UHGV virus genome: UHGV-0150124
DNA: 53,037 nt
Origin: a virus
Reading direction: 5' to 3' (one strand)
The notes beneath the pieces are model-generated. The model was not told where the DNA came from. It searched no databases and worked only from the letters and a program-made list of their open reading frames with translations. Positions 2,355-43,296 of this stretch are shown in pieces (position 1 is the first letter of the stretch; each line of letters opens with the position of its first letter). The position numbers and the translations under genes are program-made.

Positions 2355-2551
2355 TGCAATAACTCCATTATGTTAATTAACGGAATAATTCTACCATTTT
2401 GTAATCCGCGTTACACTTTGAGCTTATACATAATGTATTTTTTGATCTATGTCAACATACTAAATGATAGCTTCTGCGGTGATTTGCTCATCGGATGGGT
2501 GGATCATCACGAACAACAAATGACAGTAAAACAAACAGTAAGGTGAATACA

Positions 2552-2812
2552 ATGAAAAAACTAATTGTTGCTTGCATCTTATCGGCTCTGTCTTTTGGTG
2601 CTTTTGCTTCTGTAAATTCGACAGATAAGAGTGATGCTGGCACTGCTCAATATGGTGATACTAGCCTTGATAACCAACGTTCGAGTTATTTCAATACTGA
2701 CTCATGGAAAGAAAAACAACTACAAGGTAAAATTATTGACAGTGAATGTAATTTACCTATCCATTTTTCTGGTGTAAATGATGGGTGTGAAAAAAATAAA
2801 AACAATGCATAA
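2552..2812 (+). CDS. Small secreted protein, opposite-strand moron
   Basis: ATG at 2552 after AAGGTGA; N-terminal signal peptide MKKLIVACILSALSFGAFA; AT-rich; followed by terminator. Confidence 0.5.
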   Translation: MKKLIVACILSALSFGAFASVNSTDKSDAGTAQYGDTSLDNQRSSYFNTDSWKEKQLQGKIIDSECNLPIHFSGVNDGCEKNKNNA

Positions 2813-9008: not shown

Positions 9009-9713
9009 TTAACCTACCTTGCTGGAACCAGGAAAACAGGAGATCGGCAGTGCTGCCGGACGCGGAAAACGCAAACGGCAACCGCTAAGGCGGTGGCTGC
9101 ATTTGTCTAACGTTGGGTCACTTGTTGGTGTATCTTTATCAGTTGCGACCGGGCCGCCAGAATACATGCACCCGTCGCCTCTGTATTGCCACTGACAAAC
9201 GTCAGCAAGGATGGTGCGCCCTGGGATAACGGCTTTATCTGCATCAATTGGCGTTGACAATTCATATTGCACCTGATCCGCTGTTTCTTCGCTCATTGCT
9301 TCAACGACGTAAAAAGATACAGCCTCAATAGATGGATCTGCGTCTGGATTGCCGTTAGGGAAGTTAACGGCGTCCAGGTATTTAACCTCCACCTGGCGGC
9401 GCGTAACCTTCATTCCTCGCAGGTCGTTGAAATCGTTATTCATCCCTGTGATTAGCCCGCCGATATTGGCTACAACCATTTGAGGCCGCGAATAAACGCC
9501 CTCGTTTTTCATTTCGAAGCCCGTCGTCTCGATCGGGTAGCTGTTGTAAGCTACTCCCTTCCAGATAACCTGGCCGTAATAGCCGTTCGCGCCGGAATGG
9601 AAGCGGATAACCTCGCCTCCCAGGGGAGTAAGGTCCAGTTCAAATAAGTCAATGACCGCGCCAACTCCGGCATCGACGGAATCAATAATCATCTCTCTCG
9701 GAATATTGCGCAT
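9009..9713 (-). CDS. Minor tail protein L-like
   Basis: 234 aa; alignment by eye with lambda gpL (LDAVNF...GN..ADP, C-terminal Cys cluster). Confidence 0.8.
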   Translation of the reverse strand: MRNIPREMIIDSVDAGVGAVIDLFELDLTPLGGEVIRFHSGANGYYGQVIWKGVAYNSYPIETTGFEMKNEGVYSRPQMVVANIGGLITGMNNDFNDLRGMKVTRRQVEVKYLDAVNFPNGNPDADPSIEAVSFYVVEAMSEETADQVQYELSTPIDADKAVIPGRTILADVCQWQYRGDGCMYSGGPVATDKDTPTSDPTLDKCSHRLSGCRLRFPRPAALPISCFPGSSKVG

Positions 9714-9731
9714 TTTCTCACCTTGTCATTT

Positions 9732-9747
9732 TGTGATATGCGTCACA
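9732..9747. promoter_or_regulatory. CRP-consensus palindrome TGTGATATGCGTCACA
   Basis: Perfect TGTGA-N6-TCACA half-sites, ~62 bp upstream of a candidate promoter start. Confidence 0.4.
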
Positions 9748-9767
9748 CTAAATCACACCAAAATGGA

Positions 9768-9796
9768 TTGATCATGGTTTTTACAATATGTATATT
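9768..9796 (+). promoter_or_regulatory. Candidate sigma70 promoter for the plus-strand moron cassette
   Basis: -35 TTGATC (9768..9773), 17-bp spacer, -10 TATATT (9791..9796). Confidence 0.35.
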
Positions 9797-9824
9797 TTAC
9801 TCAAACGAAGGGGAAGTTAACAAA

Positions 9825-10031
9825 ATGGCGCGGAGGTGCGTTATGACTGAAAAGCCATGGAAGTTGACGGTATTCATGACAGACGGTAGGGAAAAGGTTA
9901 TCGCCCTGTATGACGACGAGGGGGAAGCATTGGTTGACGCGCTTTTACTTGCTGAGGATGACCGCCTTTTGGGATACCAGATCGAACCTGTCAAATATGA
10001 GGCTAACAAAAATGAAAAAATACAGTCTTGA
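9825..10031 (+). CDS. Hypothetical protein, moron cassette gene 1
   Basis: ATG at 9825 after GAAGGGGAAG; opposite strand to surrounding tail genes. Confidence 0.4.
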   Translation: MARRCVMTEKPWKLTVFMTDGREKVIALYDDEGEALVDALLLAEDDRLLGYQIEPVKYEANKNEKIQS

Positions 10032-10362
10032 TGTGTGGTTAAGTGGTAGCAAGGAGTGTTTCGGATTATTTGATAGCGAAGAAGTAGCCCTGGAAGAAGG
10101 CAGGATTCTTGAATGTAGTTTAGGCCATCCAGTGAAATATGCTGCTAATCCGGTACAGATAGTTGATGAGGTGGAAGATATGAACCCGAAAGATATTAAT
10201 GTTAACTTCAATGTTAATTTTGCAGACTCTATGGATCAGTCTTGCCCTGGTGAAATACACGCAAAAGGTTTCCCGGCTGACGATCCAGAAGCAAAACGCG
10301 AATACGAAAAAGCTGCGAAAGACTTCTGCATCGATAACCTAAGCTGTTTTAATGGCAAATAA
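10012..10362 (+). CDS. Hypothetical acidic protein, moron cassette gene 2
   Basis: 116-aa ORF, ATG at 10012. Confidence 0.4.
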   Translation: MKKYSLDVWLSGSKECFGLFDSEEVALEEGRILECSLGHPVKYAANPVQIVDEVEDMNPKDINVNFNVNFADSMDQSCPGEIHAKGFPADDPEAKREYEKAAKDFCIDNLSCFNGK

Positions 10363-10377
10363 AGAGTGAGCCAATAT

Positions 10378-10611
10378 ATGAAGATGATAGGTATTATCAA
10401 ACTCGTTGTTACATCTAACAAAAAGAAGGATTTTAATATAAAAGATAAATACCCATTATTCAAAACATCTTCTGGTACTTATTTCACTGTTGGCAACTGT
10501 TTAAACTTTGTTCCGCTGACAGTGCTTGATGTTTCTGGAGGCATGGTGAAATGGTATGGAACTGTTTACGGCGATGATTTTATGCCTGATATGCTATTTT
10601 TTGATGCGTAG
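10378..10611 (+). CDS. Hypothetical protein, moron cassette gene 3
   Basis: ATG at 10378 after AAAGAGTGAG. Confidence 0.4.
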   Translation: MKMIGIIKLVVTSNKKKDFNIKDKYPLFKTSSGTYFTVGNCLNFVPLTVLDVSGGMVKWYGTVYGDDFMPDMLFFDA

Positions 10612-10621
10612 GAGTAAAATC

Positions 10622-10870
10622 ATGGGGCGGCGCAATCACGGTGATTATGTGTACACGTTGAAACAGGCCGCCCGCCTCGTCGGTTATCATGAGCACGAAT
10701 TTATTGATTTGCTGATTGAGCGCGGGATTCTGTACCAGGTATGTTTAACGCTGTACCCGAAAGCGAAATACCTACAGGAAAAGTTATTTATCATCATGAC
10801 GGATGAAAACCAGGTAAATCATTCATTCGTCACCGATAAGGGATTGACATATTTGAAGGGAGTGTTATGA
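10622..10870 (+). CDS. Putative HTH DNA-binding protein, moron cassette gene 4
   Basis: ATG at 10622 after AGGAG; segment YTLKQAARLVGYHEHEFIDLLIERGIL looks like an excisionase/MerR-type HTH. Confidence 0.4.
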   Translation: MGRRNHGDYVYTLKQAARLVGYHEHEFIDLLIERGILYQVCLTLYPKAKYLQEKLFIIMTDENQVNHSFVTDKGLTYLKGVL

Positions 10871-10947
10871 GGTGTGTGAACATTACATTCTCGAAGTGAT
10901 TATTATTGCGGTAGCTGTAATGCTGGTATTATCACCAATATTATAAA

Positions 10948-10972
10948 CCCCGCTCCGGCGGGGTGTTTTTTT
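10948..10972 (+). terminator. Intrinsic terminator ending the plus-strand cassette
   Basis: Hairpin CCCCGC-TCCG-GCGGGG followed by TGTTTTTTTT. Confidence 0.6.
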
Positions 10973-11184
10973 TAATCGTAGGATAGAAATGCCACCTCTT
11001 TGCCATCATATGTCGTACAGCCGACATACCCATCACCCATATCATGAAGATACCAGGTCTCACCGTCATCAGCCTTTACAGTGAGATCATTAATTTCATA
11101 ATCGGCAAATAATGTAAAAGCTCCAGTGCGCTCCACTACACAAAAATAAGGCATATAACCACCTCTAATTAATAACTTGCTCAA
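10972..11184 (-). CDS. Hypothetical small protein
   Basis: 70-aa ORF between the M-like gene and the moron cassette. Confidence 0.3.
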   Translation of the reverse strand: MSKLLIRGGYMPYFCVVERTGAFTLFADYEINDLTVKADDGETWYLHDMGDGYVGCTTYDGKEVAFLSYD

Positions 11185-11518
11185 ACGTTGCGTTTAGCGT
11201 GTACAAAGGCCCGTCTTTAGTCATGCTCCATTGCCGACAGACAAAAAGCCTTTGCACGTTATCCATTGACGGCGACCAGTAAAAAGCCTCGACCGCGCCG
11301 CGCGCCCTCAAGAATGCTTCCGCCTGGATTGCTACGTTTCCACCATCACCACATCCGGCGCTACTGCCTTTAAACACCAGGGTGTAGCTATCAAGCAATG
11401 GATTGATACCTTTTACCTGTCTTTGCTCATAACCATCGCCCAACTTAACAACAGATACGTCTGGCTTCCTGGTCACGCTGTAGCTTCTTTGCGGCGTCCA
11501 TCTGAACACTTCCGGCAT
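11165..11518 (-). CDS. Minor tail protein M-like
   Basis: 117 aa; matches lambda gpM by eye (FRW...GDGY.QR...FEQV.N). Confidence 0.8.
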   Translation of the reverse strand: MPEVFRWTPQRSYSVTRKPDVSVVKLGDGYEQRQVKGINPLLDSYTLVFKGSSAGCGDGGNVAIQAEAFLRARGAVEAFYWSPSMDNVQRLFVCRQWSMTKDGPLYTLNATFEQVIN

Positions 11519-11685
11519 AAAACCCCCACAAGTTACATTTTGTATATATCTTTACGCGCTTCTACGCGAAAAATAAGATCATTGTCACAATGATTATAGC
11601 TAGTTTACAAAATGGCTTCACATAGCACGCAACAAGATGTATATAGAAAGCAAGAAGAAAGTAGTACCAACGAAGGAGGCCCAAA

Positions 11686-11841
11686 ATGAAACGCTATGTA
11701 GTAGTAATGCTAAATAACGCATTCGAACAAGTGGAAATAGCAATCGTTAAGGGTTTCGACGACGCATTCAAATACGGTCAATTCATGATGAATGCGAAAG
11801 AAGATGAATACCGGGACTTCTTCCTGAAGGCACTTAACTAA
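11686..11841 (+). CDS. Small ORF (51 aa), first gene of opposite-strand mini-cassette A
   Basis: ATG at 11686 after AAGGAGG; preceded by motif GTTTACAAAATGGCTTCA. Confidence 0.3.
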   Translation: MKRYVVVMLNNAFEQVEIAIVKGFDDAFKYGQFMMNAKEDEYRDFFLKALN

Positions 11842-11858
11842 GGATGATGGGGTGAGTT

Positions 11859-12113
11859 ATGAAACTGGTAGCGATTGACAGAAATCTGAAAGCACAGAAA
11901 AACGCACAGGACCGGATCATCAAGAAAGGTAAGGAATTACTTAAAGCCTTTCTGAGAAAAGAAGTTTACCCCAAAAAGTTACGCGACGGTTACGGATACA
12001 AAATGGATATCAATCTTGATTGGAGGCTGTTTAGCGAAGATTTGAAGGTTTGGTTAATTGTTGAGCACCATGCCTATAACAAGTTATGTGGCGTGAAAGG
12101 CACTCATAAGTGA
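11859..12113 (+). CDS. Hypothetical basic protein (84 aa), mini-cassette A
   Basis: ATG at 11859 after GGGGTGAG; followed by terminator. Confidence 0.4.
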   Translation: MKLVAIDRNLKAQKNAQDRIIKKGKELLKAFLRKEVYPKKLRDGYGYKMDINLDWRLFSEDLKVWLIVEHHAYNKLCGVKGTHK

Positions 12114-12174
12114 GTCGAGATATTCGAAAGGGGATATATCGCGCGGAATGGTCGTTTATAAATACGAAAAATAA

Positions 12175-12205
12175 CCCCGGCATTGCACCGGGGTTTAGTT
12201 TATTT
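12175..12205 (+). terminator. Intrinsic terminator after mini-cassette A
   Basis: Hairpin CCCCGG-CATTGCA-CCGGGG followed by TTTAGTTTATTT. Confidence 0.5.
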
Positions 12206-14545: not shown

Positions 14546-14702
14546 GATTTAACCTCATGCAGAATGTGATGTATGTCTCTATTTTATACAAAATGGCTTC
14601 ATTTCAACGAATACATTTTGTATAAAGAAGCTAAAGGGAAGGGATAGAGCAAATGGATTTAAAAGGCCGGATTAACCGGAGGAAGCAAAAGGGGACAAGA
14701 AA

Positions 14703-14786
14703 ATGAAAAACGCAAACTACCGCCCCAACGAACATGAACGCTATGCGGATTTCATCGAAGAAATGTTAAAAGCACTTAAAAAATAA
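14703..14786 (+). CDS. Small ORF (27 aa), first gene of opposite-strand mini-cassette C
   Basis: ATG at 14703 after GGGGACAAG; preceded by motif TATACAAAATGGCTTCA shared with cassette A. Confidence 0.25.
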   Translation: MKNANYRPNEHERYADFIEEMLKALKK

Positions 14787-14854
14787 ACAATATGCGTGTA
14801 TAAATAAGTTAAAGGAAGAATTTAGCAAATCATAATAAGCGGTAGGAGTTGATT

Positions 14855-15268
14855 ATGAAACGGTTAGCAAAAATGGCACTTACTGTGATTGCCGCACTCG
14901 CATTTAACGCGAACGCTAACGAGGCCATAAGCATTAACTGTGAAGAAGTGGCAAACCATGTAGCAGCATATCACGACATGATCAAAAAAGAACCAGCCGC
15001 GCCAGCAATTCTTTTTAAGGCAATTGATAAAAAATTTGAAGGTAAACCAGTTTATGCTCGCTGGTTTAATTATGGCCTTGTAAACGAGGCTGCTGTAGGC
15101 GTAGTCTTTGAAAATAATAGCGAAATAAAAAACAGGATAGCAAACGAGTGCAAGGCAAATAAAGTTGCTTTCGCGGAAAGAATTTTTAATGAAGGCGGCG
15201 CGGGCGCAAAAAATTACGCAATTGTAGATTTGGGTAACGGGTTTATTGATATTATTAGAATCAAATAA
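14855..15268 (+). CDS. Secreted protein with signal peptide (moron)
   Basis: ATG at 14855 after GGTAGGAG; signal peptide MKRLAKMALTVIAALAFNANA; followed by terminator. Confidence 0.5.
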   Translation: MKRLAKMALTVIAALAFNANANEAISINCEEVANHVAAYHDMIKKEPAAPAILFKAIDKKFEGKPVYARWFNYGLVNEAAVGVVFENNSEIKNRIANECKANKVAFAERIFNEGGAGAKNYAIVDLGNGFIDIIRIK

Positions 15269-29219: not shown

Positions 29220-29320
29220 TTTTAGAATCTCCGTCTTTCAGTGGCTTATATATAACAAAACGGCACTGCCGGAACAATGCCATTTCGTAAACATTGTGAT
29301 AAAGATCACATTTTGTTCAT

Positions 29321-34732: not shown

Positions 34733-34748
34733 TGTGATACGTATCACA
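34733..34748. promoter_or_regulatory. CRP-consensus palindrome TGTGATACGTATCACA
   Basis: Perfect TGTGA-N6-TCACA within a fully symmetric 14-bp palindrome, in the gap between methylase and ninG. Confidence 0.4.
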
Positions 34749-34770
34749 CAGTGACGCCATTTTGTAAACT

Positions 34771-38103: not shown

Positions 38104-38145
38104 TCACAATACAAAATGTATATTTATGTGATCGGAATTACTCTG

Positions 38146-41938: not shown

Positions 41939-42310
41939 CTTAACATCTTTCAACTAATCCCGCAATCATCGCCGTTCCCGGCGTGACCTTGCTCACTCCA
42001 AGCAAGCTGACTCGTCGCCTTGCGTGCGGTTTCGTGGGGGATGTAACGCTTTAAACACCCCATGCGCCTTGTTATCAGTGCCGCTTTCGGTCCCCCATCG
42101 GGGAGTTACTCCACGGTTGACAAGGTGTTAAGCCTGATTTTTAAAGTGCCAGGAAGTTGCTTTTGTTACCTGCGCCCTTCCTTTGACTCGCAATATACGC
42201 CCCGTAAAACATCGAGTCAATCCATTTTGTATACTTTTTTAAAATATTTTATATGCCATTGATATTTAAATAATAAATAACGTTTTCTGTTTACGTTTTG
42301 GTGTTTTCCA

Positions 42311-42991: not shown

Positions 42992-43296
42992 GTCGCTACC
43001 CTATAACCTCAAAAAGTTTGATGCAAGTCACAAAACGTGTATTTTAAGCCTTGATCTTAAAATTCCATTTTGTAAACTTGCAGACAAGGTAAGGCCATAC
43101 TTGCAAAGACGCAAGGAAAAAGATAACGGAAGGCACAAAAAGGCACTTACCTTATGCTCTTTAAAAATCCGGTGTCGCTGCGAAGCGAAAAACAAATATC
43201 ACGCAACGGCGGGATCTGTTGAGCGGTCAGTCACTGCTATCTAATGCTAATGGGATGCCCGCCCGCGCGTTCACTCTAACCATAGGAGAAAATGCG
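42992..43296. promoter_or_regulatory. Immunity-region intergenic control region (candidate operators and rightward promoter)
   Basis: 305-bp gap with repeated CTTGCA / TGCAAG half-sites and palindrome CTTGCAAAGACGCAAG; no Cro-like ORF found. Confidence 0.4.
43153..43190 (+). promoter_or_regulatory. Candidate nutR (boxA-like TGCTCTTTAA plus boxB-like CGCU-GCGA-AGCG)
   Basis: Resembles the nutL candidate (CGCUG.GAAG core). Confidence 0.35.

Follow-up and report, generated by a model that had tools for sequence, protein, structure and literature searches.

Organization of an opposite-strand unit in the tail gene cluster

The sequence analyzed here, virus genome UHGV-0150124 (53,037 nt, hereafter the window), is that of a temperate siphophage of the mEp021 type (mEpimmI group). 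The mEpimmI phages are Nus-dependent, non-lambdoid coliphages and are as frequent as lambdoid phages among Escherichia coli isolates from the human gut (PMC11893012). Between two minus-strand genes of the window, encoding tail protein L (PF05100; 9009-9713) and an M-like minor tail protein (PF05939; 11165-11518), lies a plus-strand unit (9732-10972) composed of a CRP-type palindrome, a sigma70-like promoter, four small open reading frames (ORFs), and an intrinsic terminator. An initial annotation of this locus had reported these components between the L-like and M-like tail genes, and all of them lie where it had placed them. The unit corresponds to gp74-gp71 of mEp021, in which gp71 is annotated as a "putative antirepressor." An additional 70-aa ORF on the minus strand (10972-11184) is located between the unit and the M-like gene.

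The control region opens with the palindrome TGTGATATGCGTCACA (9732-9747), whose arms are conserved in the phage family and whose center is free to vary. It is followed by an A-rich segment, CTAAATCACACCAAAATGGA (9748-9767), possibly an UP-like region contacted by the RNA polymerase alpha subunit's C-terminal domain (alpha-CTD), and then by the -35 hexamer TTGATC (9768-9773) and the -10 hexamer TATATT (9791-9796), the latter with a TG immediately upstream. The promoter, TTGATC-17-TATATT, matches 9 of the 12 consensus positions, and the position of the -10 hexamer predicts a transcription start near 9803. Within the leader, positions 9816 to 9828 hold the motif GTTAACAAAATGG, the reverse of a phage-wide 13-mer, CCATTTTGTAAAC.

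ORF1 (62 aa; 9843-10031) is preceded by the ribosome-binding site GGAGG (9832-9836) and overlaps ORF2 (116 aa; 10012-10362), which consists of a hypervariable N-domain and a near-invariant C-module. ORF3 (77 aa; 10378-10611) is a variable cassette, and ORF4 (82 aa; 10622-10870), a standalone KilA-C protein (ANT, PF03374), is the most conserved gene of the unit. The terminator (10947-10973) has a stem at 10947-10964 with 7 pairs, 6 of them GC, and a 4-nt loop, followed by T8 (U8 in the RNA). Its predicted energy of -15.8 kcal/mol (z = -3.3; an equally good fold in 1 of 200 shuffles) agrees with its earlier description as strong. A minus-strand transcript would form a weaker hairpin with a poor U tract; the mEp021 annotation has a bidirectional terminator at the homologous place. 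A 16-codon hydrophobic ORF, VIIIAVAVMLVLSPIL (10896-10946, plus strand), directly precedes the terminator. Elsewhere in the family, the place after ORF4 is occupied by different small ORFs of a membrane-like character, for example MKIEVLALIAMGLIVFGVHAV... in 25 loci, and RefSeq sometimes labels one such small ORF "transporter."

To compare the unit among relatives, we used 44 IMG/VR loci together with mEp021 and the prophage of E. coli FAH; identities given as fractions below are mean pairwise values over the 39 distinct sequences in this set. Across 9650-11200, the window shares 82% identity with mEp021 and 99.4% with the FAH prophage, and this stretch has matches in 35 of 5,426 complete E. 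coli genomes; no relatives outside E. coli were found in a scan of species-representative genomes. The unit is present in 44/44 IMG/VR relatives, as well as in mEp021 and FAH. ORF3 occurs in only 6 of the 46 members, so the four-gene operon originally described holds for the window, while the conserved core is ORF1-ORF2-ORF4, with variation confined to the ORF3 slot and the region after ORF4.

The unit had also been termed a moron. In line with this, it resembles lambdoid morons of the Hendrix type in lying between M and L on the opposite strand, in having, at the level of sequence, its own promoter and terminator, in its variable cassette slot, and in its low GC content (0.36 to 0.44, against flanks of ~0.50 and 0.49 to 0.53 in the L and K genes; ORF3 has a local value of 0.36). 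Unlike sporadically inserted morons, however, the unit is found in every family member examined, and a manual analysis of the mEpimmI group counted its KilAC-like gene among the core genes (PMC11893012). It is therefore not a recent insertion and behaves as a core module. In the FAH prophage, despite the 99.4% identity, the ORF1 start codon is ATA and the right arm of the palindrome is CCACG (L002 3080-3200), which points to local decay in this strain; the RefSeq annotation has no ORF1 at this place.

Conservation footprint of the control region

The promoter match by itself is not significant, because a scan of 3.3 kb yielded 11 promoter-like sites where 6.4 ± 2.5 are expected. This is offset by the conservation of the -10, the -35, and the palindrome arms. 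The -10 hexamer has an identity of 1.00 and the -35 hexamer 0.97, some relatives having TTGATA, so that the sigma70-like promoter noted earlier is both present and conserved. The arms have an identity of 0.96, against 0.66 for the 4-nt center. Within the spacer, which is 17 bp here and in 44/45 relatives, the first five bases have an identity of 0.71 and the remainder 0.96; the A-rich segment is at 0.90, with a 1-bp indel in 16 relatives, and the leader motif is at 0.98. ORF1 (0.72) and the ORF2 N-domain (0.67) fall below these values, the control region being more conserved than the genes downstream of it. Conserved arms, -35, and -10 around a divergent center constitute the footprint of a protein-binding palindrome and a working promoter.

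The palindrome matches TGTGA-N6-TCACA at 10/10 core positions in the window and at 9/10 in 43/45 relatives, whose sites take the form TGTGAT-N4-(G/A)TCACG. The right arm is TCACG in 43 relatives, TCACT in one, and CCACG in FAH, and TCACA only in this window. The perfect CRP half-sites that had been noted are thus real here but represent a private single-base variant. The palindrome lies about 51 bp, center to hexamer, upstream of the -10. When the -10 is set at -12 to -7, the site is centered at -63.5 in the window and 28 relatives and at -62.5 in the other 17, which are one base shorter either in the stretch separating the palindrome from the -35 or in the spacer. With the earlier position of -62 adjusted to these values, which depend on a start predicted from the -10, the geometry is class-I-like.

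A phage-wide set of palindromes at promoters

The palindrome at 9732 is one of at least seven CRP-type sites across the phage, three of which are perfect. Sites were assessed by consensus matching and shuffling. Exact copies of TGTGA-N6-TCACA number three in the window (9732, 29295, and 34733) against 0.04 expected, and none of 100 shuffles reached three; the 8-bp palindrome core occurs 5 times against 0.7 expected. A site at 43017 has one mismatch, and those at 38127, 11574, and 14565 are weaker. In mEp021 there are no exact sites and seven with one mismatch, where ~2 are expected, several of them at homologous places.

We also traced the recurrence of sites with at most one mismatch across the 46 loci, from the repressor gene through lysis (910 kb). 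The family sites cluster at four homologous promoter-proximal positions, in 46/46, 42/46, 27/46, and 21/46 loci, respectively. In these clusters the arms, (C/T)GTGAT...ATCACA, are kept and the center varies, with the exception of the site in the immunity region, which is nearly invariant.

Each palindrome stands at a characteristic distance from a promoter. In the gp74-gp71-type unit, 20 nt (19 in some relatives) separate it from the -35 of TTGATC-17-TATATT. On the minus strand, the perfect palindrome of P29.3k (29295-29310) is 17 nt from TTGTTC-17-TATATA (center ~-60.5), and that of P34.7k (34733-34748), kept in 46/46 relatives, is 17 nt from TTGTTA-16-TATACT, which is followed by nutR2 (center ~-59.5). 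The minus-strand P38.1k has a palindrome with two mismatches (38127-38142), 17 nt from TTGTGA-16-TAAGCC (center ~-59.5), and 27/46 relatives have this site with zero or one mismatch. On the plus strand, P43.0k in the immunity region has the palindrome TTTGATGCAAGTCACA (43017-43032), 18 nt from TTGATC-16-TAAACT and followed by nutL (center ~-60.5). Two further plus-strand units, one ParE-like and one gp63-like, carry siblings at 11574-11589 and 14565-14580. The former reads TAAGA-N6-TCACA here and TGAGA-N6-TCACA in most relatives and is 27 nt from TTCACA-17-TATATA (center ~-70.5), and the latter, TGTGATGTATGTCTCT, is 17 nt from TTCATT-17-TATAAA (center ~-60.5).

Within each group of homologous sites, the distance from palindrome to promoter is constant. 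Two of the palindrome-bearing promoters precede the published nutL and nutR2 sites. All promoters of the set have either an A-rich segment of the ACAAAATGG type or a TG adjoining the -10, and ACAAAATGG(C/A) adjoins the -35 at P_R, P29.3k, the ParE-like unit, and the gp63-like unit. Because the palindrome at 9732 belongs to this phage-wide set with fixed distances, co-regulation of the unit with its siblings by one dimeric activator is suggested. Palindrome control specific to a lysogen-expressed accessory operon, as put forward in the initial annotation, does not hold up, since the same palindromes are also found at early promoters.

Candidate regulators of the palindromes

On balance, we read the unit as a conserved, autonomous opposite-strand transcription unit with a CRP-type, class-I-like promoter, probably co-regulated with the sibling promoters and most likely by cAMP-CRP. 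The sequence elements, the footprint of their conservation, their recurrence, and their constant spacing are observed directly, and the transcription start, the identity of the binder, and activation rather than repression are what we infer from the sequence. A dimeric activator, with host cAMP-CRP as the most likely candidate, would bind the palindrome at 9732-9747 and recruit RNA polymerase to TTGATC-17-TATATT through alpha-CTD seated on the A-rich DNA between them. The transcript would carry the translationally coupled ORF1 and ORF2, the optional cassette (ORF3 here), and ORF4, and would stop at the terminator. As the other opposite-strand promoters, the internal ones, and those before nutL and nutR2 would be under the same activator, the unit would follow the signal read by much of the early program. 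Late in infection, head-on transcription by Q-modified polymerase would probably silence it.

The case for CRP rests on the half-sites and the 6 bp between them, on the T and A adjoining the cores (TGTGAT...ATCACA), and on where the sites lie. Class I activation by CRP occurs with sites near -61.5, -71.5, -82.5, and -92.5, a window loosened by ~2 bp when an UP element lies next to the CRP site or the -10 is extended (PMC4132738). With starts predicted from the -10 hexamers, the promoters of the set fall within ~2 bp of -61.5, one being a helical turn further out. As in class I promoters of the lac P1 type, the unit has TGTGA-N6-TCACA with flanking T/A, a center ~50 bp upstream of the -10, an imperfect -35, and A-rich DNA for alpha-CTD between the site and the -35, and sibling sites lie one helical turn apart, at -60.5 and -70.5 (PMC4132738). 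It differs from them in an inferred center at -63.5 or -62.5 rather than -61.5, and in that its site lies in a phage tail gene cluster as part of a multi-promoter set of one phage.

There is precedent for CRP acting on a coliphage, as cAMP-CRP directly regulates several promoters of phage T1 (PMC6737242). The T1 pir, dam, and recE promoters parallel the present case in that host CRP acts on several promoters of a single coliphage and couples carbon status to the decisions of the phage; in T1, however, which belongs to a different phage family, CRP represses, whereas the geometry here predicts activation (PMC6737242).

Several observations weigh against this reading. The site center is 1 to 2 bp beyond -61.5 in the unit and 1 to 2 bp short of it at sibling promoters. 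The promoter-proximal arm of the relatives is TCACG (43, plus one TCACT and CCACG in FAH) and not TCACA, that of P29.3k is decayed in about half of the family, and the immunity-region site has an FNR-like TTTGA half. The core promoter of the unit, at 9/12, is fairly good and may be largely constitutive. The account of the mEpimmI phages in PMC11893012 contains no occurrence of "CRP" and does not discuss the promoters before these nut sites. Finally, a phage-encoded dimer with CRP-like specificity would yield the same sequence patterns.

We regard this last alternative, that the palindromes are operators of a phage-encoded dimeric regulator, as unlikely but serious. The opposite-strand and internal promoters and those of nutL and nutR2 would then make up a delayed-early regulon, activated by an early protein made from the P_R-like promoter, and the unit would be silent in lysogens. 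At least seven sites in one 53-kb genome do resemble an element-specific regulon, and among the strong consensus promoters only the P_R-like one, from which the first early genes are transcribed, has no palindrome. Across the family, one arm consistently reads CGTGA or TCACG, many early ORFs are unannotated, and several helix-turn-helix or zinc-ribbon proteins are present. Yet the half-sites, 6-bp spacing, flanking T/A, and class I positions all match host CRP (PMC4132738), and the outermost palindrome base is free to vary at P34.7k and P38.1k, as expected with a GTGA/TCAC core. The mEp021 annotation includes no CRP/FNR-type protein, and an abundant host factor fits, making a new one unnecessary.

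Two other regulators were considered and rejected. LexA control finds no SOS box near the unit and no enrichment of such boxes. The phage repressor is unlikely to be the binder of the palindromes, because the strong P_R-like promoter, which the repressor must control, lacks one, and the candidate operator CTTGC-N6-GCAAG occurs only at 43100. This candidate (region 43078-43115, plus strand) has conserved arms and a free center and overlaps the start region of the nutL promoter. The P_R-like promoter, TTGACT-17-TATATT (42184-42260, minus strand), lies upstream of nutR1 and the N-like gene and is bracketed by the inverted repeat TTGACTCG/CGAGTCAA, which together with CTTGC-N6-GCAAG forms our set of candidate repressor operators. 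No Rep-operator-like CTTGC-N6-GCAAG is found at the promoter of the unit. Because neither such an operator nor a LexA box overlaps that promoter, nothing visible would hold it off in a lysogen, which would permit expression from the prophage.

Returning to cAMP-CRP, recurrence of the CRP-type design at six other promoters of this virus family means that the virus may read the nutritional state of its host. A recurrent design of this kind across the gut coliphage family is not described in PMC11893012, and the promoters and operators of mEpimmI phages are undescribed despite the frequency of these phages. If the palindromes are CRP sites, they offer a concrete, mutable DNA handle on how host nutritional state feeds into temperate-phage decisions, and they define a promoter design common to early and accessory units. 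Should a phage factor be the binder instead, the sites would outline a new regulon belonging to the phage.

Products of the unit

The unit encodes small non-structural proteins. A homology search, which had been proposed as a check, placed ORF4 in PF03374 and left ORF1 to ORF3 without an assigned function. ORF4 passes the Pfam threshold narrowly (score, 27.8 bits; cutoff, 25.3; E = 3.4e-6). Its close homologs are all standalone 82-aa E. coli proteins with PF03374 only, and its distant relatives, found by tblastn, are the C-terminal halves of two-domain Ant/Rha proteins, with 30 to 41% identity. With 90 to 100% conservation and a dN/dS of 0.12 (n = 46), it is under strong purifying selection. 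The AlphaFold model (pLDDT, 83.5) is a winged helix-turn-helix, the nearest structures being of the MerR, RacA, and Xis type, although not significantly so (E = 0.25, TM = 0.46). The earlier label "helix-turn-helix-like" is thus a reasonable description of the model, and "antirepressor" is an annotation only.

That annotation nevertheless raises the possibility of an antirepressor module of the classical kind, like P22 immI or the Gifsy and 186 Tum systems, in which ORF4 would bind and inactivate the repressor of the prophage or those of co-resident phages, with induction gated by the palindrome. P22 immI (ant, arc, mnt) is likewise a regulatory module embedded in the late operon and lies inside the late region, and like it, the unit sets an Ant-family domain among late genes. 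Besides the above-threshold Pfam match and the similarity to annotated Ant/Rha proteins, RefSeq and GenBank label ORF4 as an antirepressor. We nonetheless consider this explanation improbable. ORF4 consists of the KilA-C part only and lacks the domain (BRO, Rha, AntA, or KilA-N) that known antirepressors carry at the N terminus. Nothing visible would keep the unit off in lysogens: in addition to the missing LexA box and Rep operator, there are no ribbon-helix-helix partners of the Arc/Mnt type as in P22, ORF1 to ORF3 having no Pfam family, and in contrast to P22 the unit runs opposite to the late genes. Nor is an antirepressor needed for the phage repressor, an S24 protein that cleaves itself (PMC11893012).

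Moreover, in the one case that has been dissected, AriS of Listeria phage phi10403S, the isolated KilA-C domain did not inhibit a repressor; it sufficed to inhibit the SOS response, probably via RecA (PMC9043618). Since the mEpimmI repressor is a self-cleaving S24 protein, SOS inhibition is a plausible alternative activity for ORF4 by analogy. The two systems share the PF03374 KilA-C domain, and the phage here has a RecA-dependent S24-type repressor; they differ in that ORF4 is a standalone 82-aa protein of a Gram-negative phage that only marginally exceeds the Pfam threshold. As a minimal KilA-C protein, ORF4 is a convenient test case for this widespread "antirepressor" domain.

ORF2 combines two parts that evolve differently. 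Its N-domain (residues 1 to 56) is hypervariable (dN/dS, 0.36; dS, 0.86) and its C-module (residues 57 to 116) near-invariant (dN/dS, 0.12); the dN/dS values of ORF1 (0.40) and ORF2 derive from only 16 and 6 sequences, respectively, many homologs having been lost in automatic extraction. The N-domain is confidently modeled as beta-beta-alpha-beta, a fold that matches many 50- to 60-aa phage proteins, some labeled DUF7336. The C-module models poorly except for one helix and also occurs elsewhere as a standalone 56-aa protein. An exhaustive profile search with ORF2 returned 15 proteins in total. An invariant motif, CPGEIHAKGFPADDPEAKREYEKAA (residues 78 to 103), resembles an OmpA/MotB-like repeat core (CEGHAKGQPADDNEAKRKLS..RAEA). 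A peptidoglycan-binding, OmpA-like assignment was not adopted, as the match is at the motif level to metagenomic long repeat proteins (P0071/P0074) and Pfam OmpA gave no hit. RecA mimicry by the C-module was rejected as well: the hit in the Protein Data Bank at E ~1e-6 is an artifact of six tandem RecA copies in the chain, each repeat contributing ~4 bits with an i-Evalue near 1e3. For the N-domain, a fold like the RNA polymerase inhibitor T7 Gp2 was set aside (Foldseek E = 1.2), the viral library returning the common DUF7336-like small fold.

ORF1, which belongs to phrog_29559 (unknown function) and has a sub-threshold match to Pfam Big_3_4, is possibly a paralog of the ORF2 N-domain, though the hhalign match is weak (P = 0.005). 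ORF2 and ORF3 have no Pfam family, and the PHROGs labels for ORF1 to ORF3 are of unknown function. Homologs of ORF3 form four clusters restricted to E. coli and lacking a domain, and PADLOC defense models gave no hit among the seven ORFs scanned.

The KilA-C precedent, the fast-evolving, recognition-like ORF2 domain, and neighboring units that encode a ParE-like toxin and an Lpp exclusion protein prompt a tentative and rather doubtful guess, namely that the proteins of the unit modulate induction (lysis-lysogeny) or the SOS circuitry, or interfere with co-resident or other phages. More broadly, and speculatively, the mEpimmI family might have wired most of its promoters (nutL, nutR2, internal, and three opposite-strand units, the first early promoter excepted) to cAMP-CRP via class I sites, so that the replication, Q-late, and accessory programs read carbon status and ORF4 damps RecA/SOS induction in starvation; we hold this to be unlikely in its entirety, if worth entertaining.

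Minus-strand features at the unit

Opposite the promoter of the unit, a minus-strand promoter-like sequence, TTGTTA-18-TAAAAT (9794-9823), lies face to face with it over the plus-strand -10. Its -10-like TAAAAT reads TACAAT in mEp021-type relatives. Transcription of L-K-I-J might begin anew from it, or it might compete with the promoter of the unit.

It is highly improbable that the palindrome and neighboring motifs serve the minus-strand late transcript, as a structure in the L leader, as a translational element, or as an internal late promoter, with any plus-strand effect being incidental. In favor of this, the palindrome lies 19 to 34 nt upstream of the L start codon and beside the L ribosome-binding site, the minus-strand promoter-like sequence overlaps the plus-strand -10, and the 13-mer motif stands ahead of several late genes. 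Against it, the palindrome forms a weak RNA hairpin (-3.8 kcal/mol, z = -0.47), and the pattern of constant arms around a variable center, which requires no compensatory changes, points to a site of protein-DNA contact. Such palindromes are also found at promoters without a nearby late-gene leader, and the conserved spacing is that to the plus-strand -35 and -10. An RNA element was also rejected on the grounds of this weak hairpin and of an Rfam search that gave nothing credible.

Neighboring opposite-strand units and a recurrent 13-mer

Two further plus-strand units have the promoter design described above. The ParE-like unit (11686-12113), between the tape-measure and M-like genes, encodes a 51-aa ORF followed by an 84-aa protein with a ParE-like toxin domain (PF24732, E = 9e-12), probably a toxin-antitoxin pair, and ends at a bidirectional terminator (12173-12195). 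The gp63-like unit (14565-15268) encodes a 139-aa ORF at the position of mEp021 gp63.

A 105-aa Lpp-like ORF (region 2365-2812, plus strand) occupies the position of the mEp021 gp81 exclusion lipoprotein. The lipoprotein of the mEp021 gp80-gp81 Lpp unit was shown to exclude phages (PMC11893012). Like the unit described here, gp80-gp81 is an opposite-strand unit in the same late region; unlike it, its gene content is unrelated and no clear promoter of the same design can be called upstream of the Lpp-like ORF. That upstream region contains a related palindrome, TGTAA-N6-TTACA, and TGTAATCCGCGTTACA, which overlaps a copy of the 13-mer. Near it is TGTTAATTAA, which we take to be ArcA-box-like.

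The 13-mer CCATTTTGTAAAC occurs at 14 sites with at most two mismatches in the window, against 2.3 expected (2394, 9816, 11603, 11994, 14584, 29280, 34689, 34757, 37108, 38083, 42222, 43065, 47331, and 52092). Early promoters have it in one orientation, as the last part of the spacer together with the -10 (CATTTTG|TAWACT); in the other, ACAAAATGGC, it adjoins the -35 of other promoters, and at 9816 it lies within the transcribed leader. Possible readings are a favored context for the -10, a promoter that is divergent or antisense, and a site bound by a protein. The copies at 29280-29292, 34757-34769, and 42222-42234 (plus strand) face into the genes upstream of them at the 3' ends, the repressor gene among these, and if these three backward-facing copies act as -10 regions, antisense transcripts would result.

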